Under the pieces are notes generated by a model that saw only the letters and a program-made list of their open reading frames with translations, made no database searches and was not told the origin of the DNA. Shown in pieces: positions 4,895 to 64,000 of a stretch of DNA of 64,000 nucleotides. Position 1 is the stretch's first letter. Each line of letters begins with the position of its first letter. The position numbers and the translations under genes are program-made. The DNA comes from an uncultured bacterium (GTDB lineage: Bacteria > RBG-13-61-14 > CAYWKU01): the NCBI GenBank assembly GCA_964459325.1, contig CAYWKU010000007.1, positions 83,422-147,421 of the forward strand. Reading direction: 5' to 3'.

Positions 4895-4921
4895 TCCTTA
4901 AATTACAGCCGATTGAATCAA

Positions 4922-4951: not shown

Positions 4952-4960
4952 ACATGTGCG

Positions 4961-5088: not shown

Positions 5089-5247
5089 AGTACGGAGTGC
5101 GGACAACCCCATCGTTATATGTCGGCCTGTCTGTAAGGACAACAAGAAACCTTGCCTTTCCCTTTCCCCCGCATCCCCTTGCGCCGCCCGTGCGATAAGC
5201 CTATACTGGACTTTCCTGAAAAATTAAATTTTCGATGGAGAGGGAAA

Positions 5248-48046: not shown

Positions 48047-48051
48047 CTTTT

Positions 48052-48942
48052 TCAGTTTTCACTCCGTTTGAAAAATGCCCATACGCCCAGCGCCACGGCC
48101 ACCGAAACGATGGTAAGAATCCGGTAGGCGAAGGCGGCGGTGGCGGTGACGGCAATAGGAGCGCCGCCGATACTGGCGACGTAAGCCCACGTCACGTCCC
48201 TTACCCCCAGCCCTCCCGGCACCAGCGATATCAACCCCGCCACGAAACCCACGCTCAACGCCGGCAGAGTGATGAAAAACGGCTCCACCGTCTGGCCCGT
48301 GGCCCTTATCATGCAGTAAAAGCTTGCCGCTCCCATCGTCCATACGCCGGCGGTGCACAAAAAGTTCAATGGCATTCGGGACGGGGCGAACGCCGCCCGC
48401 AGCCCTTCCAGGAACCTCGCCCCGAAGCTTGTCACGCGGGCGGAGACGATAATCCCCAGCCCTACTATTACCGCCGCCACCGTAGCTATGATGAACACCA
48501 GCGGGTTGATTTCTCCCATTCCCGATTTTCCCCATCCCACGTACCAGGCGAAAACCGCCGTTACCAGGCCGGTGAAAATCAGGTCAAGTATCACTTCCCC
48601 GCCGGAAGCCGCCAGCGACCTGGTGGCGGGCACCCGGCGGCCCTTCATCAGGCCGATTTTGGCCCCGATGCCCACCCCCTGAACCATGGAGGCATAGTTC
48701 AGAAGGAACCCGGCCATCACCACCTCCAGCACGTGCCGGTATCTCATCTCAGGCGCAGCCAGCGACCGGAACCTGAGGGTGGCCATGGAAAGGTTGAAGA
48801 CCCAGAAGACCAGCGCCAAGCCCACCCACGCCGGAGAAAGACCCTTGACGGTATCCAGTATTTTCCGAGGGCCCACGTGATAAACCAGGTAAACCAGGGC
48901 CGCGATAACCACTACCATAAGGAACGGTCGAAGCCACTTCAT
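48052..48942 (-). CDS. Flippase-like membrane protein (LPG-synthase TM-region family), second copy
   Basis: Start taken at internal Met (MKWLRPFLMVVVIAALV); about 8 transmembrane helices. Confidence 0.5.
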   Translation of the reverse strand: MKWLRPFLMVVVIAALVYLVYHVGPRKILDTVKGLSPAWVGLALVFWVFNLSMATLRFRSLAAPEMRYRHVLEVVMAGFLLNYASMVQGVGIGAKIGLMKGRRVPATRSLAASGGEVILDLIFTGLVTAVFAWYVGWGKSGMGEINPLVFIIATVAAVIVGLGIIVSARVTSFGARFLEGLRAAFAPSRMPLNFLCTAGVWTMGAASFYCMIRATGQTVEPFFITLPALSVGFVAGLISLVPGGLGVRDVTWAYVASIGGAPIAVTATAAFAYRILTIVSVAVALGVWAFFKRSEN

Positions 48943-48988
48943 GGCCTGTTCCAGGAGGTTCGGTTTGCCGGTAGCTTCCTCGCTCAAT

Positions 48989-50140
48989 TCAAACCGCCCT
49001 TTTCCTTCGGAATCTCGATACAAGCTCCCGGGCCAACTCATCGCCGATGGCCCGCCTGTTGAAGCGGGTCTCGAAAGCCTCCCGCCCTCCGGCGGCCACC
49101 TTTTCCCTCAGCTCGCTTTCATTGTGGAGTTTCCTCACGGCATCCGCCAGCGCTTCAGGGTCGCCCGGTTTGACCAGCCACGCGCTTATTCCGTGCTCAA
49201 GGGCTTCCCGGGCGGCGGGTGTGTCGGCGGTTATCAGCGGCTTGCCCATCGCCAGCACGTTGAACACCTTGCAGGGAATAACACGGGACGCTTTCGGGCC
49301 GTCGGAAAAAATGCCCAGGCAGATTTCGGAGCGGGCTATGCGGTCGGCAAGCTCCGGGTAGTTTATCCACTGCCTTTCCAATGTCACCCGGGCGTTGCTT
49401 TCATCGGCCATCCTTTTGCAGTATTCCCATGTGGGGCCGTCGCCGATAAGGGTGAAGCTTATATCCTTTTCGTCTTCCAGAAGTTTTGCCGCCTCGATTA
49501 TAACCTCCGCCCCGTGCAGGGGGAGGAAGCTGCCGAAAAACAGCGCTTCCCCCGCGTTGATTTCAGGCGGCTCCTCGGGGAGGCTGAAATAATCTTCCTC
49601 CGCTCCTACAAACACCCTTATAAACTTGTCCGCCGGGACATTGAAATTACGGCTGTAATATTCGACGTGCGCCCCCGTGTCCAGTAGCACCGTGTCGGCG
49701 ACCCGGGAGGAGGCGCCGTCCAGGAATTTCAGAGCCTTTGCCTTTATGGAAGAGGAAGCGGCCAGCTCCCTGTCCTCCACCACCGCCTCGTACACCGAAA
49801 GAAACGCATCCAGCACCACGGGTTTTCCTTTCAAGGCGGCTAAAACCTTTGCGAGGAAAACGTCCAGGTGTCCGGGGTACCCCACTATTACCAGGTCGTG
49901 CGGCGGCATTTTCACCAGGTACTTCCACGAAAGCACTATCCATGCGATAACGAGCTTTACTCCGGCTTTTATCGCGCCCCACAGGCCGGTAACCGCTCCC
50001 GCCCTGGAGGCGGAATCTCCCCACGCCGGGCGGTGGCACTCGATAACCCGGCGCCCCGCATCTCTAAGGGCTGCGGAAACCACGTTGTTGCGGGGGTAGC
50101 CTTCGCCGGTGGAGTAAGTGCCGAAGTATACAATATTCAT
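48989..50140 (-). CDS. Glycosyltransferase, GT-B fold (GT4-like)
   Basis: MNIVYFGTYSTGEGYPRN N-terminus and overall two-domain GT-B-like architecture; weaker motif support than the other GT4 genes. Confidence 0.55.
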   Translation of the reverse strand: MNIVYFGTYSTGEGYPRNNVVSAALRDAGRRVIECHRPAWGDSASRAGAVTGLWGAIKAGVKLVIAWIVLSWKYLVKMPPHDLVIVGYPGHLDVFLAKVLAALKGKPVVLDAFLSVYEAVVEDRELAASSSIKAKALKFLDGASSRVADTVLLDTGAHVEYYSRNFNVPADKFIRVFVGAEEDYFSLPEEPPEINAGEALFFGSFLPLHGAEVIIEAAKLLEDEKDISFTLIGDGPTWEYCKRMADESNARVTLERQWINYPELADRIARSEICLGIFSDGPKASRVIPCKVFNVLAMGKPLITADTPAAREALEHGISAWLVKPGDPEALADAVRKLHNESELREKVAAGGREAFETRFNRRAIGDELARELVSRFRRKRAV

Positions 50141-50146
50141 GGCTTA

Positions 50147-50827
50147 TTAATCGAAAAAGCGATACCTGACTATGCACCATAATGCCGTTATGCCGTCTGT
50201 CCAGTGAATTTTCTTACCTTCTTCGTAATCCCTGCCGTAATAGGAAATGGGCACTTCGTAAATGCGAACCTTCCGGCGGGCGAATTTGGCGGTAAGCTCC
50301 GGCTCGATGCCGAACCTTTCCGAGCGCAACTTCATGTGCTTTATAACTCCCGTGCGGAAGCACTTGTAGCACGTTTCCATGTCGGTGAGGTTGAGGTTGT
50401 TGAGCACGTTGCTGAAAAGTGTAAGGAACCTGTTGCCCAGGTAGTGCCAGAAAAACATCACCCGGTGCGGCCCGCCCAGAAACCGCGAGCCGTAAACCAC
50501 GTCGGCGTAACCGTCCCTTATGGGGCCGAGGAGCTTTTCGTAGTCGCGGGGGTCGTATTCCAGGTCGGCGTCCTGGATGACGATAACGTCTCCCCTGGCC
50601 TGCTCGAAGCCGGTGCGGATGGCGGCGCCCTTGCCACGGTTCTTGTCGTGCCGGAAAGCCCTGATTCCCTCGATTTTTTCAACCACTTCCCACGAGCCGT
50701 CGCTGCTGGCGTCGTCAACCACCACGATGTCCATTTCATCCTCGATAGGACTTGACCTGACCCTGCGGATTATTTCCTCCACCGTGTTTCGCTCATTGTA
50801 GATGGGGATGATGACCGACACCAGCAT
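50147..50827 (-). CDS. Glycosyltransferase family 2 (soluble DPM1-like)
   Basis: Start taken at internal Met (MLVSVIIPIYNE), where stop and start overlap as TAATG; VVVDDASSDGS, QDADLEYDP motifs; no membrane anchor. Confidence 0.8.
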   Translation of the reverse strand: MLVSVIIPIYNERNTVEEIIRRVRSSPIEDEMDIVVVDDASSDGSWEVVEKIEGIRAFRHDKNRGKGAAIRTGFEQARGDVIVIQDADLEYDPRDYEKLLGPIRDGYADVVYGSRFLGGPHRVMFFWHYLGNRFLTLFSNVLNNLNLTDMETCYKCFRTGVIKHMKLRSERFGIEPELTAKFARRKVRIYEVPISYYGRDYEEGKKIHWTDGITALWCIVRYRFFD

Positions 50828-52377
50828 TACATCTTCTCCTTCTTGTAAATATATATGATTCTTCCCTCTTTTTTTACCATGGACGCCGGCTTCCAGCCCG
50901 GAGGCGCGTTGTGGGGATTCAAAAGCGGCGCCATTTGAGGATGAAACGCCCGGATAAGGGTGCTGTCCGCGATTAGGTAATCGACATCCCATCTTCGCGC
51001 GTATTCCAGCACCTTCCGCAGAGGCTCATCCGGCACCGGTACCCTTTCGGCGTTTGCGAAGAACGCCACGTAAGGCTCGCGGGTCATTACCTTCACGCTG
51101 CGACCTTCGGATTGGCGGGCTATGAATTCCGCCGCTGCCCGTTGAGGTTTCACCCATTCGGCGTCCGGGTCGGGGCCGTATTTTACTGAGGCGACGAGGG
51201 GTATCACCACGATTAATAACGCTGCAACCCCCGTTTTCTTCCCGGCCATATCGAAAGCATGGGCGATTCCCCTTCCGGCCACGATAGCTCCGAGCGGCAC
51301 CAGCGGAACGTAGTAGCGGGGGCTGGTGCCCGTCATCGCCTGCAGGCCTACGGCGGGTATCCACATGCTTAAAAGGTAGCCTATGGGTTTCCCTTCCCCG
51401 GCGCCTTTCCTGAGTATGCCGAACAGCCCCAATCCCATGGCGGCGGCAAAAACGGGCGGGAAAATGACGCTCAGGTCTCCGTAAGCGTCATCCAAGCGAG
51501 TGAAGGCGCGCCTTACAACCGCTCCGGCGTTATTACCGAGAAACTCGATTGTACCCATTTCTTCGGCGGCCACCTGAGCTTTCAGCCTGCCGGTTTCCGG
51601 GTCGATTTTACCTTTTTGCCGTTCATGTTTGTCGGGGTTGGATATGATGCGATACATCATCCCCTGCTGGCCGGTAAGCCGCCAGCTTCCCTGCTCAAAT
51701 TTCAGGTAGACAACGTAAGGCGCCGAAAATATCAACACGCCCGCAATGAAGGCCGCCGTTATGATAATCTTTCTTTTGCGTCCTTTAGACGACGCAAACG
51801 CCCATATCGCCGGGATGACGGCTTCGAATATTCCCGCCACCCGGGTCAGGTATGCCAGCCCCAGGGCTGCGCCGGAAAAGCTCCAGCGTCTTGCGGAATT
51901 TTTCTCCAGCGCCGACCACCCGATGAAAACCCCGCCCATCAATAGCGCCGTGTAAAGGCTTTCTGTAAGCGCCAAACCGCCGTAATGGACCATCTGTGGA
52001 TGGAAAGCCACGATAAGGGCCGCGCCCACGGCGGCTGTATCGCCGAAGGTGCGCCTTGCGAGCAATCCCGTCAGGACTATCGCCGCTCCCGCCGCCAGCA
52101 CCGACACCAGGCACCCCGCTATTTCCAGATTGCCGGTAAATATGCCAAAGAAAGAGCTTGCGGCGGCGAAAAGGGGTTGATAGTATCCCGTCTCGCTGCC
52201 CATCGGCACGCTCAGCCCGCCTTCGGCGATACGCCCGGCCAGAAGCAGGTAAAGGCCGCTGTCCGGGTGGTATATTTTCCAGGGGGAAGTAAGGGCGCGT
52301 AAAAAAACGCCCGCCGCCGTTATGGCGGCAAGCTTTCCCGGAAAGGAAAGCAGGAGGCTGTAAGCGCCTCTCCTCAT
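50827..52377 (-). CDS. GT-C fold membrane glycosyltransferase (family 39/83-like, ArnT/PMT-type)
   Basis: About 11 transmembrane helices with a C-terminal soluble domain; adjacent to two GT2 genes. Confidence 0.65.
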   Translation of the reverse strand: MRRGAYSLLLSFPGKLAAITAAGVFLRALTSPWKIYHPDSGLYLLLAGRIAEGGLSVPMGSETGYYQPLFAAASSFFGIFTGNLEIAGCLVSVLAAGAAIVLTGLLARRTFGDTAAVGAALIVAFHPQMVHYGGLALTESLYTALLMGGVFIGWSALEKNSARRWSFSGAALGLAYLTRVAGIFEAVIPAIWAFASSKGRKRKIIITAAFIAGVLIFSAPYVVYLKFEQGSWRLTGQQGMMYRIISNPDKHERQKGKIDPETGRLKAQVAAEEMGTIEFLGNNAGAVVRRAFTRLDDAYGDLSVIFPPVFAAAMGLGLFGILRKGAGEGKPIGYLLSMWIPAVGLQAMTGTSPRYYVPLVPLGAIVAGRGIAHAFDMAGKKTGVAALLIVVIPLVASVKYGPDPDAEWVKPQRAAAEFIARQSEGRSVKVMTREPYVAFFANAERVPVPDEPLRKVLEYARRWDVDYLIADSTLIRAFHPQMAPLLNPHNAPPGWKPASMVKKEGRIIYIYKKEKM

Positions 52378-53303
52378 CCGGTCTCGTCCTCGACCCGCTC
52401 GAACCGCAGCAGGCTTATCTGCTCGGCCACCAGCCCCAGCAGAAACACTATCACGCCGGTCACCAACAGCAGCAGGGCGAGGTTTGTGAACCGGTGCCAG
52501 AGAATGAAGGTGTAAAGGTAATAGAGCACTCCGGCCAGAACGAAAAATATGCTTATGGGAAGAAACACCCTCATCGGCGCAAACAAAGTCGCCACTCTCA
52601 AGAGAATGATGAGAAACCTCAATCCGTCCCGGAAAGGGCGAATCTTGCTCTGACCGATTCGGATGTCGAAAGTTAAAGGTGCGAAGTCCACGCTGTACCC
52701 GGCCCTTATCATGGACAGGGTGATGGTGGTGGGATAGCTGAAGGAGTTGGGCAAAAGATGCAGAAAGCCCCGGGCCACTTTGCGGCGCATGACCCGGAAA
52801 CCGCTGGTCAGGTCATATATACGCCTTCCGGCAATGTAGCCTGCGAAGGAGTTCATCGCCTTGTTGTAGAGTTTCCTGCCGCGCGTCTGCACCGTGGCGT
52901 CGTCGCGGGCGCCGACAATCATGTCGTATCTTTCAATCCGCTCCACCAGTTTGGGTATGGCCTCGGGCGGGTGCTGGCCGTCGCCGTCCATGAGTAACAC
53001 GAACTCCCGGTTAGCATGGCGAATGCCGGTTTTGACCGCCGCTCCGTTGCCTTTATTGTAGGGGTGTTTTATCAAGCGGATGTCGGCGTCTTCGAAAAGG
53101 GATACCGTGCTATCGGAGGAGCCGTCGTCCACCACGATTATCTCGGCCTCCGGCCCGACGACTTCCCTCACCCGCCGGATAACGCTGCCGATGTTTCCCT
53201 CCTCGTTGAAAACGGGCATCACGACGCTGAGCTTCTTATAGTCGAAACGACTTTTTTCGGGGGAGGTTTTTGCTTCGTTCACTTTTTCGTTTTTCTCATC
53301 CAT
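52374..53303 (-). CDS. GT2 polyprenyl-phosphate sugar synthase-like glycosyltransferase
   Basis: Start taken at internal Met (MDEKNEKV...), alternative at ~53219; LSVVMPVFNEE, IIVVDDGSSD, MDGDGQHPP motifs; C-terminal two-helix anchor. Confidence 0.8.
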   Translation of the reverse strand: MDEKNEKVNEAKTSPEKSRFDYKKLSVVMPVFNEEGNIGSVIRRVREVVGPEAEIIVVDDGSSDSTVSLFEDADIRLIKHPYNKGNGAAVKTGIRHANREFVLLMDGDGQHPPEAIPKLVERIERYDMIVGARDDATVQTRGRKLYNKAMNSFAGYIAGRRIYDLTSGFRVMRRKVARGFLHLLPNSFSYPTTITLSMIRAGYSVDFAPLTFDIRIGQSKIRPFRDGLRFLIILLRVATLFAPMRVFLPISIFFVLAGVLYYLYTFILWHRFTNLALLLLVTGVIVFLLGLVAEQISLLRFERVEDETG

Positions 53304-54667
53304 CCGGCCAGCTCCATTCCACGAGAGAGTAGATTGACGGCCCCCCCGGCTCCACCGGCCCGGGCAAGCCTTGAAACGACGTAAGAAGGCCTGGCGTAAA
53401 AACTGAAATGTGCGGCTCTCAGCGCCTTCCTCAACTTTTGCGGCGTCCAATATTCGTCCATCACTGCCGGTCGGGCCAGGTCGGCGTCGAAGGGGTTCAT
53501 GGCGTCGGTCATTCCGAGCCAACCTTTTTTTAGAGCCTCGTCGTAAAGCGGGGTTCCCTCCACCGGCGACAAAACGCTGAACTGGGCCCAAGTAACCCCC
53601 CACCTTGCCGCGAACCGGGCTGTTTCTTTAACGTGCTCCAGTCTTTCACCCGGTATTCCCACCAGAAAGTAAGCCAAAACGTCCATTCCCGCTTGCCGGG
53701 TCATGGTTATAGCCTTCCCGATATCGGACGAGGAAGTGCCCTTTCGCAGGAACCGCAGGCTTTTCTCGTGGATGCTTTCGATGCCGTAGGAAACTATTCG
53801 ACACCCCGCCCGGCTCATCCAATCAAGCATCTCCGGGTACACGTCATCTACACGGGCCTCGCACTTCCATCGGATGTTAAGTCCTTCTTCGATGATGCGT
53901 CGGCAGATTTCAATGACCCGCTCGGCGTCCAGCGTGAAAAGGTCGTCATAAATTATAACGGAACGTACGCCCGAATCGCAAGCAATTTGCCGCAGCTCCT
54001 CCAGCACCCTGTCGGCCGAATGAAGCCTCGGTGCGGAGCCAAAAACGCTTTTGTCGCAGAAGATGCAGGCATGAGGACAACCGCGACTCGTGAAAAGCGT
54101 GGTCGCCGCACCCGGCCCGAGAGGGGGATAAGAATACCGGGAGTGCTCCAGGAGTCCGCGGGCGGGATACGGGAGGCCGTCGAGGTCACCGGAAGGAGAC
54201 GCAGGCGGAGTGTGTCCTTCAGGTGTCACCACTCCGTGTAATGCGAAAAGGTCGCCGTTGTTTTGTAACGTTTCCAGCAGGTTTGCAATAACGCCCTCCC
54301 CTTCGCCCAGGACGACAGCGTCGGCGGGAAAATCGCCTTCGGTTGTGAAGAATTCCGCCCCCCGCATGGTAACATGAGGGCCCCCGATGACGACGGTTTT
54401 CCCCGCGTTTTTCGATATTTGTGCGGCACGGCAGGTTAAGTCCCATGTCGGGGTCATGCCGGTAAGCGCCGCGACCTTCGCGTTTGAAGACCGAACGCGG
54501 TTTTCAAATTCCTTCCAGCTCAGGCCGAGTGCCGGAGCATCGACCAGCTCGGCATCATGGCCCGCCTCCATGCAAACCCCTGCCAGATAAAGCAGTCCAA
54601 GAGGAGGCACAACGAAAGGCGGCTTGCGGCCTTCGCGGGCCGGAGGCACTGCAAAAAGAACTTCCAT
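53279..54667 (-). CDS. B12-binding domain-containing radical SAM enzyme
   Basis: N-terminal B12-binding-like domain (PLGLLYLAG, VVIGGPHVT), radical SAM motif SRGCPHACIFC. Confidence 0.8.
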   Translation of the reverse strand: MEVLFAVPPAREGRKPPFVVPPLGLLYLAGVCMEAGHDAELVDAPALGLSWKEFENRVRSSNAKVAALTGMTPTWDLTCRAAQISKNAGKTVVIGGPHVTMRGAEFFTTEGDFPADAVVLGEGEGVIANLLETLQNNGDLFALHGVVTPEGHTPPASPSGDLDGLPYPARGLLEHSRYSYPPLGPGAATTLFTSRGCPHACIFCDKSVFGSAPRLHSADRVLEELRQIACDSGVRSVIIYDDLFTLDAERVIEICRRIIEEGLNIRWKCEARVDDVYPEMLDWMSRAGCRIVSYGIESIHEKSLRFLRKGTSSSDIGKAITMTRQAGMDVLAYFLVGIPGERLEHVKETARFAARWGVTWAQFSVLSPVEGTPLYDEALKKGWLGMTDAMNPFDADLARPAVMDEYWTPQKLRKALRAAHFSFYARPSYVVSRLARAGGAGGAVNLLSRGMELAGWMRKTKK

Positions 54668-54802
54668 CTCAAGTCAAACATGGTAGAACAGGCGGCGTCC
54701 GTCGGCAATTGAAGAAGGAGGCTCACCCTCTTAATTTATCCCGGCATCTTGTTATTTCTTTCGCAGACATCCCCCAAAATTCATTTGAAAAAAAATACAT
54801 GC

Positions 54803-56317
54803 TCACTCGCAGATTTTTTTAACAAACTCATCATTCAGATATTTGGAGACAATCTTCTTTTGAGCTTCATCCGGAGAGTTCATGGGGTTAATGCAGGTAA
54901 AAAAATCGAGGAGCCGATTTTTATTCAACTTCAAGGCTGAGGAAAACAAGGATTTCACCAAGCCTCTGGAGAAATGTCTGGCGACGTAATTACGACTGAA
55001 AAATGAACCGATTAGCGATGCCATTTCGATGAACCGCCCGGGTCCCAATGTTTCCTTCGCATTTGCCTGCCTTCTGTTTTTATAGGTGTATGCCGACAAA
55101 AATCGCTCGTGATAAAACATATCCTTAAACTGTACGCCCATTTTCTCGAACTTGCTCAGCCCTTTTACTCCGCGCATCGGGATAAATATACTGACCGCAC
55201 AAGAGTCACAAATCTCCGATTTCGGAAGTTTATTTTTGTTTGGCGAGCTATATGCGAGCGGGTATCCGCCGAGGAACTGGGCAGATACGTAGACACCGGC
55301 GTCATAAAGGATTTCGTATACTCTTTTATAATCCAAAGGAAGGGTATTATTCTGCAAGCCTTTTTCCATGGTCTTCAAGGCCTCGGCTTCATCAGTTTCA
55401 TAGCCAATCGCTGCCAGCCTTAACCCCGCGCGCCCCGCCAATTTAAACAACTCCGGGTGTTTTAAAACATTATCCGCCCTGATGAAAGCAAAAAAGTTGA
55501 CGTCTATATTTTCCTGTAATAGCTTTTCGAATATTCTTGATTCAATCTCGGGATTTTCGCCGAAGTTGTCATCACTGATAAGTATTTGAGTTATTCCGAG
55601 TTTTCTCAATCTTGCGATTTCCTCGAACACTCTCTCCGGCGATTTGTATCTTTGTCTCATATACCACATGGTATTTGAAACGCAAAAATTACACGGATGA
55701 GGACATCCGCGGGATGATTCCACAACCCCGGCGTAACCATTCGAGTTCAGATAAGCATTATATAACCTGTAATTAATGAGTTCCCATTTTGCCAAGGGCA
55801 GGCTGTCCAGATTTGCTATCAATTCCCTGTCGGGGTTCACGCGGATTTCGCCGTCTTCTGTAGAATACGTAATCCCTGAAACGTCCGATAAGTCCGTTCC
55901 CCCGTCGAGAGCTTCTATCGTTTCCTTAAAAGTAATATCACCCTCTCTTCTTATAACTATATCCGCTCCTTTGTTTACCCATTCCCTGTCGTAAAATGTG
56001 GAGTGATGGCCTCCGAGAATAATTTTTGTTTCCGGGTTGATTTTCTTTATAATCTTGATTGTAAGCTCGCTGTTTAAGGCGTGAAACGGGGAAACAACGC
56101 TCAAGCACACGACATCCCGCCCTCGGAGCTTTTCCAGGTATTTCTTTTTGGAAATCGGGGACACCCTGGCATCTAATATTTCCATCTCATGGCCGGAAAC
56201 GGAGGCGGCGATTTGAGGGAATGTGGCGGAGCCTACGTGAAAAACCTCGTTAAGAAAGTCGCCCGGATAAGGCCATGTCGAATATAATACCTTTGGATAC
56301 AGAAAGAGTATTTTCAT
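54803..56317 (-). CDS. B12-binding domain-containing radical SAM enzyme (AT-richer codon usage than neighbours)
   Basis: MKILFLYP N-terminus, IILGGHHST, radical SAM motif SRGCPHPCNFC. Confidence 0.8.
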   Translation of the reverse strand: MKILFLYPKVLYSTWPYPGDFLNEVFHVGSATFPQIAASVSGHEMEILDARVSPISKKKYLEKLRGRDVVCLSVVSPFHALNSELTIKIIKKINPETKIILGGHHSTFYDREWVNKGADIVIRREGDITFKETIEALDGGTDLSDVSGITYSTEDGEIRVNPDRELIANLDSLPLAKWELINYRLYNAYLNSNGYAGVVESSRGCPHPCNFCVSNTMWYMRQRYKSPERVFEEIARLRKLGITQILISDDNFGENPEIESRIFEKLLQENIDVNFFAFIRADNVLKHPELFKLAGRAGLRLAAIGYETDEAEALKTMEKGLQNNTLPLDYKRVYEILYDAGVYVSAQFLGGYPLAYSSPNKNKLPKSEICDSCAVSIFIPMRGVKGLSKFEKMGVQFKDMFYHERFLSAYTYKNRRQANAKETLGPGRFIEMASLIGSFFSRNYVARHFSRGLVKSLFSSALKLNKNRLLDFFTCINPMNSPDEAQKKIVSKYLNDEFVKKICE

Positions 56318-56825
56318 ACACGGAACTCCTCAATCGTGTTCGATGAAGCCTCCAAGCACTCATTTTGAACGCGAAAAGTTGCCCATCCGATTGGATTATG
56401 CCGGGCGAGCCGAAAGCGGGTATTCTTTAAAGAACACCTGTTATCCAAAATGGCCGGCAATTGCAATTTTCTCGCGATTCCGAATAAAAACTTTTTTGTA
56501 AACAGAATTGTCAACTTCTTAAATCAAATAGTTCTTCTTGTTTTTTAATGATAACCGGGACATGCCGTGAATTCAACTTTCCGTAAATCGTTTGATTTCT
56601 CTATTCGAGTTCCGCCACAATTGCAGTGATTTTTTCAGTCCCCCGGCAATCAGCCGAAAAAGAAAAAAACAAAATTCCAGCCTATGTCGGTATTTGCCGG
56701 TGAAGTATATGATTGCTATACTGACAACAGTTAAAAGGTTACCACGTGTCTTTCAGACGGAAGAGGTGGAACAAAACTAATGTTTACCAATCCAATAATC
56801 AGATAAGCGAAACAATCCTTTTCTC

Positions 56826-58589
56826 ATGATGCCTCGAAACTTTTCCCGTCTAAGCTCATCCTCTCAGTCAGACAACTATATCACGCTGACATTGCTGACG
56901 TTGATAGGAGCATTCGCGTACTATATTTCCTACGTTCAATACGGTATGATTCAAGTGGACGAGGGTATTTTTCTGGATTTTTCCATCAGGATGATGCGCG
57001 GCAGGGAATGGTTCGTTGACTTTTTTCCACCGTACGGCCCTCTGAACTTCCTCCCACTGAGTGGAATTTTTTCCATTACAGAGCCAAGCTTTTTCTTTTT
57101 CCGATTGTTTTACATATTGTTCAGGCTTTGCGGTTTATGGGCGATGATTTCCGTTTCCAGACGCCTGATGCCCTCCAAATGGGCGGTGTTGGCGATTTTA
57201 CCCGTGATTATAGCTCCCGGCCATCTGTTTAAAAGCGTTTTCCTCCTGATGCCCATGTTGATTTTGTGGCTGGTTTTTCGGGCATGGGAATCGCGCCGGA
57301 TGTTCTGGCTGTTCGTGACCGGATTAGCCGCGGGCATTTCTTTGTACTTCCGCTACGAGATGATTTTTCCACTATCCGTTATCGCGCTCTTGGGACTCGA
57401 GCTAGACCATTTTCGCCGGCATTTTAAACATCATGAGCGCTGGATTCGGCGTTTGATTAGTATCACGGGCGTATTCGCCGGGTTGATGTTACCGGCGTTT
57501 TTTTTCCCCGGGGCAGTCAATGCTCCTAATATTTTGGGGCGTGCTTTCTTTGGAGGAAAAATTCCGGCTCTGGGAGTGCCGTGGCCCGGGTTTCCAACGA
57601 CCCATAGCCCGGACCAAACAGCCACGTTTCTGGTATTGTGGGGGGTGCTTGCAATTTACGCCGGGGTTGGAGCGGATATTTTGCGCACTCTGTTTCGGGC
57701 AAGGAGCTATCCCGCATGGGAACACAGGCTGCTGGTACTCGTGGCAGGGACACTGTTTCTTTACAATGTGCTCTTTCAAAGTAATCTTGGCCACATGCTT
57801 CAAGTCTCGGCCCCCGCCTTTCTGCTGCTGGCGGACATCGGGCGACGGGCCGTTGTATACGGCAAGAACACAATAATGAAAATAGCATCGGGAGCGGTTC
57901 TTGCCGGAATCCTAGCCGCCTTCCTGATTTACGCCGTCTTTTTAACCAACTTGCCCGGAGTCGCCGGCATCGCCCTTCGCCGGATGATGGACACTCCAAT
58001 AACTTCGCCCCTGGGCACGGTATATTTTCACGGGCCGAGAGCCGGCCAAATACAATCAACAATAAATTATATAATGTCTCACACCGAGCCCGATGACCCC
58101 GTGCTGGTAGTGCCCAGGGCCACTCTTATCTCGATAATGTCGGAACGACCGAACCTTAACCCATACGATACCGTAGAAACTTTTCCCACATTTGTATCTG
58201 GTTGGAAAACCGTTAACGATTTTTTTAAAGCCATTACCAAATCGGAGCTTATCGTTTATTTCGAGCGGCCGACGAGATTGGAACGGCCCCGTGCCCCGCA
58301 TCAAAGAATGCGCAGCAACGACTTTATATTCGAGACGATCCTTCGAAACTACACCTTCGAAAAGCGTTTTGGAGAGTATATAATCCTGAGAAAAGGAAAA
58401 GACGAAACCGGCGCCACAAGAGCCTTCATTGACGGCTGGGAGGCGTATAAATACGGTCATTGGGAAAAAGCGGAAGGTTCGTTGAAAAAAGCCGTCGAGG
58501 CCGGGCTTTCCGAGTCCGAAATACGACCTATTCTAAAAAATATCAAACATTTCAAATCATTAGGATTATCTCGTCCCCCGCAATTATGA
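56826..58589 (+). CDS. Polytopic membrane protein, GT-C-like, with C-terminal soluble TPR-like region
   Basis: About 12 transmembrane helices in the first ~400 aa; only plus-strand gene inside the cluster; function unassigned. Confidence 0.45.
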   Translation: MMPRNFSRLSSSSQSDNYITLTLLTLIGAFAYYISYVQYGMIQVDEGIFLDFSIRMMRGREWFVDFFPPYGPLNFLPLSGIFSITEPSFFFFRLFYILFRLCGLWAMISVSRRLMPSKWAVLAILPVIIAPGHLFKSVFLLMPMLILWLVFRAWESRRMFWLFVTGLAAGISLYFRYEMIFPLSVIALLGLELDHFRRHFKHHERWIRRLISITGVFAGLMLPAFFFPGAVNAPNILGRAFFGGKIPALGVPWPGFPTTHSPDQTATFLVLWGVLAIYAGVGADILRTLFRARSYPAWEHRLLVLVAGTLFLYNVLFQSNLGHMLQVSAPAFLLLADIGRRAVVYGKNTIMKIASGAVLAGILAAFLIYAVFLTNLPGVAGIALRRMMDTPITSPLGTVYFHGPRAGQIQSTINYIMSHTEPDDPVLVVPRATLISIMSERPNLNPYDTVETFPTFVSGWKTVNDFFKAITKSELIVYFERPTRLERPRAPHQRMRSNDFIFETILRNYTFEKRFGEYIILRKGKDETGATRAFIDGWEAYKYGHWEKAEGSLKKAVEAGLSESEIRPILKNIKHFKSLGLSRPPQL

Positions 58590-58668
58590 ACAAGAGGCCG
58601 TTGCAGAATTATGATTTTTCGTTTGGGATGTGTTGACCTTCATCGTGCCGAAAAAGAACCCCGAATGG

Positions 58669-58717
58669 ACAAGGGGCTTCAGCCCCTTGAATTTCAAGGG
58701 GTTAAAACCCCTTGTCT
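58669..58717. terminator. Tandem GC-stem hairpins between convergent genes (candidate bidirectional terminator; member of the GGGG-TTAAAA-CCCC hairpin family)
   Basis: GACAAGGGGC-ttca-GCCCCTTG followed by CAAGGGG-ttaaaa-CCCCTTGTC; further hairpins and T-runs up to ~58870. Confidence 0.5.
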
Positions 58718-58901
58718 GGAAAAGACATTCCCGGGGAGCTACAGAAAAAAAGCCTTCTCTCCCCCTGAAGCCTGTTTTGCAACGGTCTCAACAAATAAAA
58801 AACTCCCGGCCGTCTCTTTCGGCCCGCCCTTTTTTCGTGATTTATTTTAGAAAAACAGGCTGCGGCTTTTTGTTCGGGAGGGCGAAATGCCGGGGTTTAT
58901 T

Positions 58902-60269
58902 TCAAGGAAAAGTTCCCCGGCCAACAAAACCCAGTCTATGGGCGTTATAACTCGAAAAATCTATAAGCTTCTTGGTATAATTCAAAACACGATAATCCCT
59001 TTTCGTAGACCAATCGAGTGCTACACTGAGGGGATAATGAAACCGTGTATATCTTTCCGCTTCGATACTGTAACGCTTGAATTCAGAATCCAAATTGTCA
59101 GAACTGATGTTGGGGAGAGGAACGTCGGCGTAAAACGGTATATTAATTATCGAAAACGGATATTTTTTATGAAGTTTAATAATTTCTTTTACCACACCTC
59201 TACTTGGTCTGAGTCCCGAAAAGGCGATAAAAACTGAGATACTAATTTCGTCAACTCGCCGAGCCCACTCGAGAATACGAGCAAACTGACTTAAGTCGAA
59301 ACTCCGCATCCAATCTACCACCGGTTGAAAAATCAAATGAACACTTGTAAAACAAGAATTTATTATTTCCAACTCTTCGACTTTTGGAAGACGGTAAAAC
59401 ATGTATTCAAGGGAAAAATTTCGCTTTTTCGTAAATATCTTATCGACATATCCCATAGAGGGATATTCCAGCGGATCATGGGACACTATGTATACGTATT
59501 GTATTTTAGAATCGGCATGAAATCTATCAAAGTCAGAGGCCACGGCTTCCGGAGACCTGAATACCATCCCCCTTCCCATGAGAGCTTTTTGGTACTTGAA
59601 ATTTCCCATGCATTCGCATTTAAACTGACACCCCCTGAATACATTAAGATATGGATATACGAAATGAGAAAAAATGCTCCGTTGGGACTTGTAAATCCAG
59701 TTTTGCAGTGAAGGGAACCAATCAATGGTGATGAAATCCATGGAATCGAATTCTTCGCCGGATATAGTATATGTGACCTCTCCGGTCATATCGGCGCTGG
59801 TAACATTTGGGGGAAGACCTCCGTCGTCGCCGTCCAAAATACGCCCAACAAGCTCGGGAAACGGGCGGTCGGCATCTCCGATAACCACGTAATCCACTCC
59901 CCACTTGTCCACCAGTTGGCGGTGAAAAATGCCGGCGGTGTACCCGCCGATAATTATGCGGGCCCGGGGATTGATTCGCCTGATGCGCCTTACAAGACGT
60001 CCGGCCGAGGCAAGCGAGTAGAACCAGTGAACATCCATGGCTATTATCTTCGCCCGGGCTATATCGGAATCGGTTACATCAAAATCGAACCTGCCGAGTT
60101 TGGAGCCGGAAACGGCGTTTATGAGGGCAATCGCCCCCATGGGCACCACGCGACGAAACGAATGACCGCCATACGGATGAATGTAAAGTACGTCCAGGTC
60201 CCTTTCGCTCATAAAGACCTTCCCCTCTAAGCTGTTATTCCATTCTTGGAACTCAAGCGGAGGCGACAC
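58902..60269 (-). CDS. Radical SAM-like protein with B12-binding-like N-terminal region and a non-canonical CX3CXC cysteine motif
   Basis: FRGCQFKCECMG sits where B12-radical SAM enzymes carry SRGCxxxCxFC; N-terminal DVLYIHPYGG...IIIGGYTAG resembles a B12-binding domain. Confidence 0.5.
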   Translation of the reverse strand: MSPPLEFQEWNNSLEGKVFMSERDLDVLYIHPYGGHSFRRVVPMGAIALINAVSGSKLGRFDFDVTDSDIARAKIIAMDVHWFYSLASAGRLVRRIRRINPRARIIIGGYTAGIFHRQLVDKWGVDYVVIGDADRPFPELVGRILDGDDGGLPPNVTSADMTGEVTYTISGEEFDSMDFITIDWFPSLQNWIYKSQRSIFSHFVYPYLNVFRGCQFKCECMGNFKYQKALMGRGMVFRSPEAVASDFDRFHADSKIQYVYIVSHDPLEYPSMGYVDKIFTKKRNFSLEYMFYRLPKVEELEIINSCFTSVHLIFQPVVDWMRSFDLSQFARILEWARRVDEISISVFIAFSGLRPSRGVVKEIIKLHKKYPFSIINIPFYADVPLPNISSDNLDSEFKRYSIEAERYTRFHYPLSVALDWSTKRDYRVLNYTKKLIDFSSYNAHRLGFVGRGTFP

Positions 60270-60377
60270 GGCAAAACCTTACCACATATAAAATAGCTCA
60301 CAAAATCAGCCGGTAAATTGCAAGCATGCAGCCGGCCGGTTAACGGGCCACTCGCCGGCCAAAACGCCGTATTCGGT

Positions 60378-61913
60378 TTATGCATTATACCAGGAAGGTT
60401 TCCTGCTGCTCATGTACTGTTCGCCGCTACCGGATAAGAGACCTTTAAGTTGTGCCCATTGAAATTTCAGCGCCACTTTCCAGAACCACCAGTACAAGTT
60501 CCTTTTGAAGGGATAGGGACTTACAAGCCCCTTAAAAAAACCGCCTCCTCGAAAGATGAATTTCTTCATCATGTCGTTGTATAATTCCAGCATTTCATTC
60601 CGCGTCATGTTCTTGCACTCAATGATAGGATTAAACCAGTCATACTTGGAAAAATCCCTTTCCATTATTATTTTCGCTTCCTGAGCGTCTTCCCAGAATT
60701 TGGTGCCGGGCAGGGGGGTGATGAAATGAAACGCGGGGAAATTCACCTTGCTCTCCAACGCATAGTCCAGAATGGCCATCATGGACTCACGAGTCTCGTT
60801 GGGAAAACCTACCAGGTATGTGCATTGACACCACACCTGGGGATATTTTCTTGCCATAAGCTTGCATGCTTCCTTGGCTGTTTCGGATGTGTAGTTCTGC
60901 TTATGCAGCATTTGAAGGTCTCCGGTGGTAGCCCGTTCCGCGCCGATGAGGATCATTTTCATCCCGGACTTCACCTGTTTTTCGAGAATGCCCAACTTTT
61001 CATCCCTCAAAAGCATGTCCGCCCTCATGAAAGCGAACCACCCTATGTCCCAATTGCGGCGCAATATTTCCGTCGCCCACTTATCATTCCACTCAGGATT
61101 CATATTCCAAGTGCCGTCCACCCAATTGAACTGCCGACTGCCGTAATCGGTATACAGCCGTTCCATTTCCTCGATGGTTTTTTCCACGCTCTTGGTGCGG
61201 TACATTGGGCTAGCAACGGGTTTGTCGCCTTCCATGTGCCAGGGACTCTCCTGAGGCCAGAAAGAACAATATGTACAACCGGAAGTGCACCCGCGAGAAT
61301 GCTGAACCGGAATGCTCTTTTTGAAAGCCCACAATCTGCCGCGCTGCCCGTATATCTCGTGATTCATAAGGTCATAGGCGGGCAACGGCAGGTCATCGAG
61401 ATTTTTTACAGGCTCGCGGAACGGAGTCCGAACCAGCTTTTCTCCGTCATGGTAGATCAACCCCTTAACCGTATCCGGGTTCGGCTCGGACCTCATCAAT
61501 TCCTTGAGCAACTCCGGTAAAGTGTCCTCTCCCTCACCGAATACCAGATAATCAAAAGGAGCATCATTTCCCAGGTACATATCCGGCAGGAAAGGATAAT
61601 GTCTCCCCCCACCTATTACCACACAGTCGGGATTGGCGCGCTTGGCTATCCTTGCCACCCTTTCCCCTTCGTTGGCGTACATTGTCTCTTCGCCAATACC
61701 TACGAAATCGGCCCTCTCATCATTTATCATCTTCTCCAGAGTTCTCCAACCCGTTCGGAGAGCGCAACAATCAATAATCTTGATATCCAGGTCGGGAATA
61801 CGTTCCCGGACAGTCGCCGCAAGATAGGGATAATTAAGCGGCATCCAGAAATTGTCGTCCATGTTTACGAATTGCCAATAGCGACGCGGGGACCTGACGA
61901 ATAATAACTTCAT
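60378..61913 (-). CDS. B12-binding domain-containing radical SAM enzyme
   Basis: Start taken at internal Met (MKLLFVRSP); VVIGGGRHYP B12-domain-like segment; radical SAM motif SRGCTSGCTYC. Confidence 0.8.
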   Translation of the reverse strand: MKLLFVRSPRRYWQFVNMDDNFWMPLNYPYLAATVRERIPDLDIKIIDCCALRTGWRTLEKMINDERADFVGIGEETMYANEGERVARIAKRANPDCVVIGGGRHYPFLPDMYLGNDAPFDYLVFGEGEDTLPELLKELMRSEPNPDTVKGLIYHDGEKLVRTPFREPVKNLDDLPLPAYDLMNHEIYGQRGRLWAFKKSIPVQHSRGCTSGCTYCSFWPQESPWHMEGDKPVASPMYRTKSVEKTIEEMERLYTDYGSRQFNWVDGTWNMNPEWNDKWATEILRRNWDIGWFAFMRADMLLRDEKLGILEKQVKSGMKMILIGAERATTGDLQMLHKQNYTSETAKEACKLMARKYPQVWCQCTYLVGFPNETRESMMAILDYALESKVNFPAFHFITPLPGTKFWEDAQEAKIIMERDFSKYDWFNPIIECKNMTRNEMLELYNDMMKKFIFRGGGFFKGLVSPYPFKRNLYWWFWKVALKFQWAQLKGLLSGSGEQYMSSRKPSWYNA

Positions 61914-62340
61914 GGTATCCTCCCGTTCCCGAAACATCTATCTCGTAAATACGAAGCTTAACAATTGAAAATAACAATCCGGCCCGCGAAATAAAAGCGG
62001 ATTTTCCACATTTCCGTCAGCTCTACGTAACTCCGAGCCGCCCCTCCTTGGAGTCCATGCTCCCAAGAAGGTTCCAAAGCCCCATCCGCCCCACTCTTGA
62101 CGCGAGTCGTGACAGTCCACCTGCTTGAAATTATACAATATCCTGCCCCTCAATTCAACTGAAACCCACCGGGGGGCTAACGTTTCGTATTGTGTGTAAA
62201 AGTAAGGACTTTTTATGTACCCTCCGCTTTTTGTTGTCAAATAAAAAGGCATTATTTCATCCCAGAATTTGATATTCTCAGCCCGATTTTGTTATGGCGG
62301 TTTGCATAAATCCGGCTTGGCAAATAGTTTAAATTGTATC

Positions 62341-63381
62341 ATGAAATCCATAGATATCAGAAGCGACACGGTAACGGTGCCCACCCCCGGCATGCGGGAG
62401 GCTATCTGCAACGCCGAGGTGGGAGACGACGTTCACGGCGAAGACCCCAGCATCCGCCGGCTGGAGCAGATGAGCGCCGAAATTTTCGGCAAGGAAGCGG
62501 GCCTGTTCATGGCATCGGGCACCATGGCCAACCAGGTGGCCCTGCTGGCTCATACCCGCCCCGGCGACAACGTCGTCATCGGCGAGGGGGCTCATAACTA
62601 TTTCTACGAGTCGGGAGGAGGCGGTGCTCTGGCGGGAGTCCTGTTTACCGTGGTGGGCCGGGGCGGCACTTTCAACGCATCCGAAATGGAAAGCGGTTTC
62701 ACCCTTCCCGACCATCATTTCGCCCCCACCACGCTCGTTTGCGTTGAAAATACCCACAACCGCGCGGGCGGCAAAATATTCCCGCTCGAAAATATCGAGG
62801 GAATATCGAGAATGTGCACGTTGTGGGGGATAAAAACACACTGCGACGGCGCAAGAATATTCAACGCACAGGTGGCCACCGGCGTGCCGGTAAGCGAATA
62901 CGCCCGGCATTTTGACTCAATCAGCTTCTGTCTGAGCAAGGCGCTGGGAGCACCCGCCGGGTCGGTGCTCTTGGGAGACAGGGAATTTCGGGACAGGGCC
63001 CACAGGTACAGGAAAATGCTGGGAGGCGGTATGAGGCAGGCGGGATTCCTGGCCGCCGCCGGAATCTATGCCCTGGAACATCACGTCGAAAGACTGGCCG
63101 AAGACCATGAAAATGCTAAGGAGTTGGCGAAATCAATAGCCCGAAACCCCGGCTTCGAGATTGACCTCGAAGGCGTCGAGACCAATATCGTTAACGTAAG
63201 GATTGCCAATGATGCCATAAACGCCTTCCAATTCGTATTCAAGGCCTCCGAAAACGGCGTGCTGGTCTCGCCCCGGGATATGGGGTCTTTCAGGATAGTC
63301 ACTCATCTGGATTTTCAAGGGGAATGGATACCCGAAGCGGTGGAGCGTTTGAACAAAACACTGGAACAAATGGAGGCCTAG
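62341..63381 (+). CDS. ltaE: Low-specificity L-threonine aldolase (PLP-dependent)
   Basis: ATG at 62341; N-terminus MKSIDIRSDTVTVPTPGMREA typical of threonine aldolases; PLP-lysine region (FCLSKALGAPAGSVLLG). Confidence 0.85.
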   Translation: MKSIDIRSDTVTVPTPGMREAICNAEVGDDVHGEDPSIRRLEQMSAEIFGKEAGLFMASGTMANQVALLAHTRPGDNVVIGEGAHNYFYESGGGGALAGVLFTVVGRGGTFNASEMESGFTLPDHHFAPTTLVCVENTHNRAGGKIFPLENIEGISRMCTLWGIKTHCDGARIFNAQVATGVPVSEYARHFDSISFCLSKALGAPAGSVLLGDREFRDRAHRYRKMLGGGMRQAGFLAAAGIYALEHHVERLAEDHENAKELAKSIARNPGFEIDLEGVETNIVNVRIANDAINAFQFVFKASENGVLVSPRDMGSFRIVTHLDFQGEWIPEAVERLNKTLEQMEA

Positions 63382-63390
63382 GAGGAAAAA

Positions 63391-64000
63391 TTGTCGGAGT
63401 CCGGCGCCGAAGTAACGCTGAGGTTGTGCGACGATTACCGGGAAGATTTGGTTTGCAACGCGGTAACCTCCGCCCTCGCGGACCTGGGCGGCATGGAGCG
63501 GTTTGTTAAAAAAGGTCAGAAGGTGTTGATAAAGCCGAACATGCTGCTGGCCAGGGAGGCGTCCCGCATGGTCACCACCCATCCGATGGTAATGCGGGAA
63601 GTCATGTCCATGGTGGCGGATTCGGGGGCGTCCATGATAGTTGGCGACAGCCCGGCAATGGGCGGCGCAAAAGGCGTGGCACGTAAGTCCGGGTTGATGG
63701 AAGTAGCCGAACACTTCGGAGCGGATGTTATCAACTTCCGGGAAGTATGCCGCCCCCAAACCCCGGAAACATGTACCTACAAGATGCTGGAGCTGGCGGG
63801 AGAAGCCCTCGGAGCGGACGCCATTATCAACCTGCCGAAAGTAAAAACACACGGCGCCATGACCCTGACCGCCGGGGTCAAAAACATGTTCGGATGTATA
63901 GTGGGAAGAGCCAAGACCCAGTGGCACCTCAAAGCCGGCAGGGACGCCCTGGCTTTCGCCAGAATGCTTGTGGACGTCTATTCGACCGCCGGGCCGGTGC
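63391..64000 (+). CDS. DUF362-family protein, 3'-truncated by the window edge
   Basis: Open frame from TTG 63391 (GGAGG 5 nt upstream) to the window end, not in the ORF track because it has no in-window stop; translation contains the DUF362-like N-terminal pattern (LRLCDDYREDLVCNAVTSALADLGGMERFVKKGQKVLIKPNM). Confidence 0.45.
   Translation, partial: MSESGAEVTLRLCDDYREDLVCNAVTSALADLGGMERFVKKGQKVLIKPNMLLAREASRMVTTHPMVMREVMSMVADSGASMIVGDSPAMGGAKGVARKSGLMEVAEHFGADVINFREVCRPQTPETCTYKMLELAGEALGADAIINLPKVKTHGAMTLTAGVKNMFGCIVGRAKTQWHLKAGRDALAFARMLVDVYSTAGPV

Follow-up and report, generated by a model that had tools for sequence, protein, structure and literature searches.

Has a bacterial glycan cluster gained a block of radical-enzyme genes from elsewhere, and what might that block do at its edge? 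This question is raised by a 64,000-nt stretch of contig CAYWKU010000007.1 from an uncultured bacterium (hereafter the window), in which a 7.6-kb segment of lowered guanine plus cytosine (GC) content adjoins a cluster of glycosyltransferase (GT) genes. A first-pass annotation had described the segment as a later-acquired radical S-adenosylmethionine (rSAM) cassette appended to that cluster. Here, we show that this segment, which we call the island, is compositionally foreign, bounded by conserved flanks and lineage-specific, and that its genes are intact and have distant relatives. The best explanation as a whole is an acquired or replaced accessory tailoring cassette of an envelope-glycan cluster, to which we give a probability of roughly 0.6; that the island was acquired or replaced, and is not an artefact, is by itself highly probable. 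The island and its four genes are as follows.

54712..62297, 7,586 nt: variable low-GC segment (the island), GC 0.466; its edges are the points at which nucleotide homology to the related contig L008 ends and restarts
54803..56317, minus strand: rSAM-A, cobalamin-domain radical SAM protein, 504 aa, motif CPHPCNFC
56826..58589, plus strand: GT-C-like integral membrane protein, 587 aa, with a Pfam PMT_2 match
58902..60212, minus strand: rSAM-B, B12-domain protein of a divergent radical-SAM-like family, 436 aa, motif CQFKCEC
60378..61913, minus strand: rSAM-C, cobalamin-domain radical SAM protein, 511 aa, motif CTSGCTYC

Base composition and limits of the island

Taking the 64-kb window as the reference for composition, GC lies between 0.52 and 0.61 in nearly all 1-kb windows, and the series from 55 to 62 kb reads 0.44, 0.43, 0.52, 0.46, 0.44, 0.49 and 0.50. 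At a resolution of 200 nt the fall sets in at ~54.7 kb and GC recovers at ~62.3 kb. The extent first proposed, 54.7 to 62 kb, is therefore right at its left edge and falls short at its right, which sits at ~62.3 kb and not at 62.0. The lower GC itself is borne out by computation: the island has a GC of 0.466, compared with 0.569 ± 0.009 for all native windows of the same size, the lowest of which reaches 0.554. Moreover, the tetranucleotide z-score profile of the island correlates with that of the rest of the window at r 0.58, where native chunks give 0.836 ± 0.028 (z ~-9).

The same picture is obtained gene by gene, on a map of 44 genes in which the four island genes are compared with the 40 others. 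Their GC values (0.441, 0.494, 0.453 and 0.492) are the four lowest among the 44, against 0.574 ± 0.020 elsewhere (z -3.9 to -6.5; Mann-Whitney p = 1.5e-5). GC at third codon positions (GC3) is 0.48-0.60 compared with 0.70 ± 0.05 (p = 2.9e-5), and the synonymous-codon distance of the island genes is raised (z = +1.4 to +4.4; p = 2.7e-4). The encoded proteins had been described as rich in Lys, Asn, Ile, Phe and Tyr, and so they are, with these residues making up 0.26-0.31 of each as opposed to 0.214 ± 0.025 in the others (p = 1.8e-4); the peptide quoted as an example, MKILFLYPKVLYSTWPYPGDFL, forms the N-terminal end of rSAM-A, the 504-aa protein encoded at 54803-56317 on the minus strand. Sliding-window GC, codon usage and tetranucleotides all differ strongly from the flanks.

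GC at first codon positions (GC1) of the island is 48.5, where 55.9 would be expected from its total GC, and GC3 is 53.8, where 47.4 would be expected, both by the regression lines of Lawrence and Ochman (1997). The core cluster shows deviations of the same sign, less than half as large. Disequilibrium of this sign would be expected if low-GC DNA were moving toward the composition of a higher-GC host, and is suggestive only.

Gene spacing and orientation also set the island apart, in agreement with the first-pass annotation. The intergenic gaps in the island stretch measure 135, 508, 312, 165 and 427 nt, whereas at 21/21 junctions in the core cluster the genes overlap or stand no more than 24 nt apart (an apparent gap of 663 nt proved to hold a GT2 gene). 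The sole plus-strand gene, at 56826-58589, is the only one on that strand between 29.8 and 62 kb.

A variable slot at the edge of a conserved cluster

The core cluster spans ~25 kb (29.9-54.7 kb), lies wholly on the minus strand and is tightly packed. Its glycosyltransferases comprise five GT2 enzymes, of which two belong to the ArnC/AglJ polyprenyl-phosphate type, four GT4/GT1 enzymes and, in addition, three PMT_2 GT-C proteins; it also encodes two LPG_synthase_TM flippase-like proteins, an epimerase/dehydratase, a methyltransferase, a DUF2304 protein and a thymidylate-kinase-like protein. Two B12-binding rSAMs (B12-rSAMs) and one SPASM rSAM are also resident in it. LptF and LptG genes lie at 12.8-15.2 kb of the window. 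Judged by this predicted gene content, the core is an envelope-glycoconjugate cluster and the organism Gram-negative.

Ten genes of the core (43744-54667) are conserved in at least five lineages, namely the window, L008, L009-L011, L095 and L096-L098, at 47-86% identity. Their order is B12-rSAM (462 aa), GT2, PMT_2, GT2, GT1, LPG_synthase_TM, methyltransferase, GT4, a membrane protein of ~750 aa and the thymidylate-kinase-like protein. The core proteins of L008 are 75-86% identical to those of the window, and those of L009-L011, L095 and L096-L098 are 47-80% identical. The comparison with L008 rests on the following flanking features.

53279..54667, minus strand: first gene of the core cluster, 462-aa B12-rSAM, in the flank outside the island, GC 0.580, of native composition
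54668..54711, minus strand: left flank, 44-nt leader ahead of the core cluster, containing promoter-like TTGCCG-17-TACCAT
62298..62331, no strand assigned: 34-nt intergenic element, right flank, 91% identical to L008 2220-2253
62341..63381, plus strand: threonine-aldolase-like pyridoxal-phosphate enzyme, 346 aa, right flank; Beta_elim_lyase 327 bits, GC 0.56
63391..64000, plus strand: 5' part of a DUF362/4Fe-4S gene, far-side flank, with 83% amino-acid and 78% nucleotide identity to L008

Both flanks are shared with L008, in the form of the DUF362 gene, the 34-nt element and the 44-nt leader (88%), and between them no DNA-level alignment is found. From these breaks in homology the slot is therefore window 54712-62297 (7.6 kb) and L008 2254-5740 (3.5 kb). 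In L008 it is occupied by a 488-aa B12-rSAM and a 590-aa membrane protein. At the protein level, only the membrane protein connects the two versions of the slot, at 34-35% identity, compared with 75-86% for the core on the same pair of contigs. Because this homologue sits at the same position in L008, the event may have been a replacement and not a pure insertion. A tblastn search with the L008 proteins found no remnants of the L008-type module in the intergenic DNA of the island.

The cassette is absent from L008, L009-L011, L095 and L096-L098, and each has different genes upstream of the core. In L009-L011 the place is taken by an FHA-domain protein, in L096-L098 by a small divergent open reading frame (ORF), and in L095 by a divergent 250-aa gene and a PMT_2-TPR protein related to a different gene of the window. 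The threonine-aldolase-like gene has no match in L008 and is absent at the equivalent place; therefore, there has been a second gain or loss event at the same intergenic spot.

Distances to homologues differ likewise between the island and its neighbour. The 462-aa rSAM that opens the core has homologues at 81, 80, 64, 63, 61 and 60% identity and more than 800 at E<=1e-20, with named matches from Nitrospirota, Schekmanbacteria, Planctomycetota and Omnitrophota at 42-47%. The named top matches of the island proteins come from Omnitrophota and Elusimicrobia (rSAM-A) and from Omnitrophota (rSAM-C), all below 40%, and nothing above ~40% identity to any cassette protein was found in the searches made. 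All four island ORFs are full length relative to their homologues. Eight window proteins that we looked up are all singletons when clustered at 90% identity.

An abrupt change of composition in a metagenome-assembled contig could also arise if DNA from a lower-GC organism had been wrongly joined to it during assembly or binning. However, run SRR7048220 was also assembled separately, and two Logan contigs of that assembly read through both junctions at 100% identity: L001 corresponds to window 51977-58621 and spans the left junction, and L092 covers 58761-64000, spans the right and continues beyond the window with DUF362, ACT, glutathione synthetase and a two-component pair. Moreover, the flanks are orthologous to both sides of the L008 contig, which has a homologous membrane protein in the same slot, and a double chimera at exactly this place is very unlikely. 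We regard an artefact of this kind as barely credible.

Acquisition or vertical descent

We propose that the island arrived by horizontal transfer, or took the place of an older accessory module, in a variable slot with the DUF362/threonine-aldolase flank on one side and, on the other, the gene that opens the operon-like ~25-kb glycoconjugate cluster. The claim of a later-acquired radical SAM cassette appended to the cluster is thereby supported, on the strength of composition, synteny, the distances of homologues and the independent contigs.

Several observations weigh on the other side. There is no tRNA in the whole window, and no integrase, transposase or mobility domain in the island ORFs. 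No repeat beyond chance is shared by the junctions, the longest shared word being the 7 nt expected by chance, and neither direct nor inverted repeats of any meaning were found. No donor can be named, all homologues being less than 40% identical, and the tetranucleotide signature of the island is closer to the host (0.58) than to any candidate locus that we fetched (0.19-0.32). Lastly, the same-slot homologue in L008 and the slightly low GC of the accessory genes there are compatible with an old, fast-evolving resident module. Searches of PADLOC and PHROGs returned only generic rSAM-level matches (26-30 bits) and no phage or defence family, and no relatives were found in viral contigs.

These points are those on which purely vertical inheritance would draw. 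An ancestral module of an rSAM and a membrane protein would have diverged fast at the slot, lost GC, expanded and been partly inverted without any transfer, the speed being ascribed to diversifying selection on surface structures. The 34% identical membrane protein at the equivalent L008 slot fits such descent, as do the L008 accessory genes, which at GC 0.53-0.57 are also lower than most of the core there (0.56-0.64), the nearness of the island's tetranucleotides to the host, and the failure to find mobility genes or junction repeats. However, 34% as opposed to 75-86% on the same pair of contigs is an extreme difference in rate. No paralogy links the island rSAMs to one another, to the resident ones or to the 488-aa rSAM of L008 (all <=31%), and it is GC1, GC at second codon positions and amino-acid composition that are shifted, not GC3 alone. 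Furthermore, the next-closest lineages have no such module at all. We therefore hold vertical descent to be distinctly improbable and prefer acquisition or replacement.

The cobalamin-domain radical SAM proteins

The first-pass annotation had counted three radical SAM genes in the island. This stands for rSAM-A and rSAM-C, and has to be qualified for rSAM-B, whose CX3CXC motif is non-canonical and whose match to the Radical_SAM family is sub-threshold.

rSAM-A matches the Pfam families B12-binding (PF02310, 48.6 bits; cut-off 32.1) and Radical_SAM (PF04055, 44.2 bits; cut-off 29.5), and its motif is the canonical CX3CX2C of a [4Fe-4S] cluster. Among 5.8 billion proteins its closest matches are 37-39% identical, the top full-length match (37%) coming from an Omnitrophota metagenome-assembled genome; just ~8 proteins fall at E<1e-79, followed by a drop to ~1e-36. 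Relatives occur in tandem arrays of 4-6 divergent B12-rSAM genes in Omnitrophota, Elusimicrobia and other contigs. Four such array loci (L003, L005, L006 and L007) include Omnitrophota GCA_043806135.1, Elusimicrobia GCA_026388125.1 and two ENA contigs, and the contigs with arrays span GC 0.39-0.73.

rSAM-C is likewise canonical, with Radical_SAM at 61.8 bits, B12-binding at 51.7 bits and a CX3CX2C motif. Its start was corrected to 61913, where GGGAGGA lies 6 nt upstream of the ATG, and the 511-aa product is found exactly on the Logan contig L092. Within the fetched loci and earlier match sets, which were compared without a global search, its closest relative is 39.5% identical over the full length and comes from an Omnitrophota locus of GC 0.40 (L068). 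Around that relative lie a DegT sugar aminotransferase, a methyltransferase, three other B12-rSAMs and a 565-aa membrane protein.

rSAM-B, for which the start was corrected to 60212, gives a 436-aa product that equals library sequence P0247 exactly and is identical in the independent assembly. Its B12-binding domain exceeds the cut-off (PF02310, 36.4 bits), whereas PF04055 reaches 17.4 bits against the required 29.5. Its motif, CQFKCEC, is CX3CXC in place of CX3CX2C (residues 195-201, window 59610-59630), and its core is shortened. An exhaustive HMMER search of 1.84 billion cluster representatives recovered ~135 relatives at E<=1e-30, 33-38% identical. Nearly all of them carry CX3CX2C, and CX3CXC recurs, among the best 150 matches, only in P0261 (CDFDCDC). 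Because rSAM-B has the majority residue at 39/39 of its positions with at least 80% agreement among 29 aligned relatives, it looks like a maintained family member with an atypical motif and not a wreck. In some members of the family the module is joined in one protein to a canonical B12-rSAM, or to an rSAM together with a methyltransferase, which hints that proteins of this type work with a canonical partner; here that would be rSAM-C, its neighbour in a two-gene unit.

One further member of the rSAM-B family, P0249, adjoins a fragment of an IS66-type transposase on a 2.7-kb contig (L094 1868-2308), a weak hint that the family can be mobile.

Against the curated NCBIfam models, 0/4 island proteins reach a cut-off. 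The top score is to BchE for both rSAM-A (135.6 bits) and rSAM-C (164.8 bits), with a cut-off of 481, and rSAM-B scores 68.1 bits to TIGR04190, with a cut-off of 500. Among themselves the three island rSAMs share only 22-31% identity, and the same range holds against the two resident rSAMs; all are at most 31% identical to the 488-aa rSAM of L008. Recent tandem duplication as their source is ruled out by these identities.

The GT-C-like membrane protein

The 587-aa protein matches PMT_2 (PF13231) at 29.4 bits against a cut-off of 26.1 (E 1.1e-6, residues 75-210). Approximately 11 transmembrane helices are predicted before residue ~390, from low-confidence AlphaFold2 models and a hydropathy scan, followed by a non-membrane part of ~200 aa with a TPR-like end. 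After helix 1 stands D45-E46-G47, which is conserved in the L008 homologue. A GT-C protein is expected to have many N-terminal helices, an acidic motif in the first extracytoplasmic loop and a C-terminal soluble domain, a layout that the predicted one resembles.

Homologues are few. A word-indexed search of 5.8 billion proteins found none. The L008 protein (3943-5715, 590 aa) is 34-35% identical over ~560 residues in local comparison, and a metagenome scan with a profile of two sequences added a partial homologue at 36% (L093). All three known members of this family adjoin a B12-rSAM gene. Sequence comparison detects no similarity between the protein and any of the three PMT_2 proteins resident in the core, and the PDB holds no sequence match to it.

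The core PMT_2 gene of L008 has decayed (8075-8601): what is left are remnants of 126 and 49 aa that match residues 168-265 and 465-516 of the window's 516-aa protein. The accessory 590-aa gene is intact there, and it is possible that its product functionally replaces the decayed one. That all members of the family adjoin a B12-rSAM, and that in L008 the core PMT_2 is decayed while the accessory gene is intact, suggests a pathway shared by the accessory membrane protein and the core.

Non-coding elements

Three non-coding features lie inside the island.

56318..56825, no strand assigned: divergent intergenic region of 508 nt between rSAM-A and the GT-C-like gene, GC 0.375-0.405, with presumed divergent promoters
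58808..58824, no strand assigned: terminator-like GC hairpin with a T-run on both strands, GGCCGTCTCTTTCGGCC, a consensus match only
61914..62297, no strand assigned: non-coding right end of the island, where the rSAM-C/rSAM-B pair has its best promoter-like site

Promoter-like sites in the 508-nt region lie at 56694-56722 on the plus strand and 56576-56548 on the minus strand, both being matches to consensus only. The region otherwise holds short ORFs with no evident function and has no Rfam match, as is true of the window as a whole, in which no Rfam family was found. The hairpin separates the convergent GT-C-like and rSAM-B genes. Upstream of rSAM-C, TTGAAT-17-TATAAT at 62158->62130 on the minus strand has 10/12 matches to consensus, and the 104-aa ORF at 61938-62252 has no family match.

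On the left flank, the leader at 54668-54711 and the first codons are 88% identical to L008 5741-5798, and L009 has a similar TTGCCA-17-TACTAT. This suggests that the core cluster keeps its own predicted promoter just upstream of the 462-aa rSAM. As the promoter-like site is kept in the window and L008 and is similar in L009, the cassette would be an add-on outside the ancestral operon. On the right flank, the 34-nt element holds the inverted repeat TTTGC-N14-GCAAA and may be the binding site of a regulator. It stands 9 nt upstream of the threonine-aldolase start in the window, and ~130 nt from the DUF362 start in L008.

Proposed function

The island could be expressed as two transcription units. 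In the first, rSAM-C followed by rSAM-B would be read on the minus strand and end at the hairpin facing the membrane-protein gene. The second would consist of the divergent GT-C-like gene (plus) and rSAM-A (minus), with rSAM-A reading into the core cluster. The three cobalamin-domain rSAMs might carry out radical tailoring of unactivated carbons on a sugar or a lipid-linked intermediate from the cluster, with rSAM-B acting alongside a canonical partner such as rSAM-C. On the periplasmic side, the GT-C-like protein would add to the glycoconjugate a sugar carried on polyprenyl phosphate. As no polyprenyl-phosphate GT2 is encoded in the island, the donor would be made by one of those in the core. 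The envelope glycan would thereby receive a decoration specific to the strain. Enzymes of the cobalamin-dependent radical SAM class most commonly perform C-methylation. Sugars, isoprenoid lipid tails and peptides are among the substrates on record for class B radical SAM enzymes (PMC8950095; PMC11214058). We offer this functional reading of the cassette tentatively, and would put its chances somewhat short of even.

The assignment of function has its own weak points. The GT-C label is weak, resting on one Pfam match just above threshold. The L008 homologue has no Pfam match even at E<=5, hhalign of the GT-C-like protein with resident PMT_2 is weak (E 0.011, probability 3.8%, with the same region aligned), and the AlphaFold2 models are unusable, with a mean predicted local distance difference test score of 43.7 from the single sequence and 41.3 with window paralogues. 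Because no rSAM reaches a curated family cut-off, the chemistry is a guess at the level of the class, and the CX3CXC of rSAM-B may not bind a cluster at all.

The cassette could instead have been acquired for a purpose independent of the glycan cluster, such as making or modifying a ribosomal peptide, a membrane-lipid tail, or a cofactor or tetrapyrrole, and would then lie beside the cluster by coincidence. Relatives of rSAM-A do occur in B12-rSAM arrays of 4-6 genes, and on the fetched stretches of L005-L007 no glycosyltransferase was called. For Elusimicrobia, a role of radical SAM gene arrays in a cofactor pathway has been proposed (bioRxiv 10.1101/765248), and B12-rSAMs are proven modifiers of lipid tails in the case of GrsA/B and Gmm (PMC11214058). 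There is also weak NCBIfam similarity to lipid B12-rSAMs and to C-methyltransferases of RiPPs (ribosomally synthesised peptides that carry post-translational modifications). Set against this, the island contains no ORF resembling a precursor peptide, no protease and no exporter, and does contain a PMT_2-type membrane protein. rSAM-A is co-oriented with the first core gene, 135 nt away, with no predicted terminator between them. A relative of rSAM-C and the Omnitrophota relative of rSAM-A lie in clusters with sugar enzymes and PMT_2, and the L008 slot likewise has an rSAM and a homologous membrane protein directly upstream of the core. We consider an independent function unlikely. The RiPP idea in particular is unsupported, as the small ORFs in the 508-nt and 312-nt gaps have nothing precursor-like about them.

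Returning to a tailoring cassette that serves the cluster, a bolder version can be put forward, though we think it doubtful. The 587-aa protein may found a rare family of polyprenyl-phosphate-dependent transferases coupled to class B rSAMs, and with rSAM-A, rSAM-B and rSAM-C might install a radically C-methylated or cross-linked envelope unit. If true, such a sugar or lipid unit would be chemistry not yet described for bacterial envelope glycoconjugates, and rSAM-B would show that CX3CXC spacing can still support radical SAM chemistry.

Other features of the window

The core protein at 43744-45990 on the minus strand (748 aa) has ~14 hydrophobic segments in a hydropathy scan and no Pfam or NCBIfam match. 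Every related cluster has a counterpart, 47-77% identical, and the protein is a candidate for a polymerase, ligase or transporter of the core pathway.

Elsewhere, the window has just one more dip in GC (18001-19000, GC 0.476), and in it lie a HicA toxin gene (18000-18224, minus strand; PF07927, 62.5 bits) and a HicB-like antitoxin gene (18221-18445, minus strand; PF15919, 42.2 bits). This pair is probably another small acquired module.

Comparison with known systems

O-antigen rfb and capsule loci are low-GC, horizontally exchanged variable regions, and gtrABC is a serotype-converting modification cassette. Like these, the island is a compositionally atypical, lineage-specific block for tailoring or transfer at the edge of a conserved glycan cluster, with other content at the same slot in relatives, and it holds a polytopic glycosyltransferase-like protein that would need a polyprenyl-phosphate sugar. 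Unlike gtrABC and similar cassettes, it has no phage, insertion-sequence or integrase context and no GtrA or GtrB of its own. Moreover, its tailoring genes are three cobalamin-domain rSAMs and not the usual acetyl- or glycosyltransferases. The comparison with classical genomic islands is similar: atypical composition and absence from relatives are shared, whereas a tRNA, an integrase or transposase and junction repeats are missing. The 7.6-kb segment is thus better called an islet or a replaced cassette than a classical genomic island.

In three-component periplasmic glycosylation (ArnC/ArnT, GtrB/GtrC, CsbB/YfhO), a polyprenyl-phosphate GT2 acts with a flippase and a GT-C protein. The core has counterparts in its ArnC/AglJ-like GT2, LPG_synthase_TM flippase-like and PMT_2 GT-C proteins. 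The island protein resembles the GT-C component in its PMT_2 match, its many transmembrane helices and the conserved Asp-Glu after the first of them. It stands apart in belonging to a family of three members, in lacking similarity to the resident PMT_2 proteins and in having a fold that is predicted only poorly.

Class B radical SAM enzymes include GenK, Fom3, TokK/ThnK, TsrM, MoeK5, the ring synthases GrsA/B of glycerol dialkyl glycerol tetraethers and the methylase Gmm of glycerol monoalkyl glycerol tetraethers (PMC11214058; PMC8950095). The island rSAMs share with them the N-terminal B12-binding domain (3/3) and, in rSAM-A and rSAM-C, the canonical CX3CX2C. They differ from the named families (BchE, HpnJ, HpnR, PhpK, GenK-like and the ladderane rSAM) in scoring below every curated cut-off, and rSAM-B further departs from the class in its CX3CXC and shortened core. 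In the literature on cobalamin radical SAM enzymes in polysaccharide or ArnT contexts we found no direct precedent.

Suites of radical SAM genes have been reported beside nitrogenase paralogues in groundwater Elusimicrobia (bioRxiv 10.1101/765248), and the arrays at L003 and L005-L007 may relate to these. As in the Omnitrophota and Elusimicrobia arrays (L003, L005-L007 and L068), which hold the nearest relatives of rSAM-A and rSAM-C, divergent B12-rSAM genes stand side by side in the island; those arrays sometimes also carry large membrane proteins without a Pfam match and PMT_2. What is held in common, however, is single genes and not the cassette, and the GT-C-like protein and rSAM-B have no homologue in the arrays.

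Horizontally exchanged edges of surface-glycan clusters are a route by which bacterial envelopes diversify, and the island is a well-delimited case from an uncultured lineage. As it stands, this is a solid result at the level of annotation and no surprise. If the functional reading is true, radical C-H chemistry would decorate envelope glycans or their lipid carriers, and a natural comparison of three states would be at hand: the core only (L009-L011), the core with a two-gene module (L008) and the core with a four-gene module (the window). Taken together, the event is familiar in kind, a low-GC accessory block at the variable edge of a glycan cluster. Its gene content is unusual: three divergent cobalamin-type rSAMs, one of them with CX3CXC, and a nearly orphan GT-C-like family beside such enzymes.

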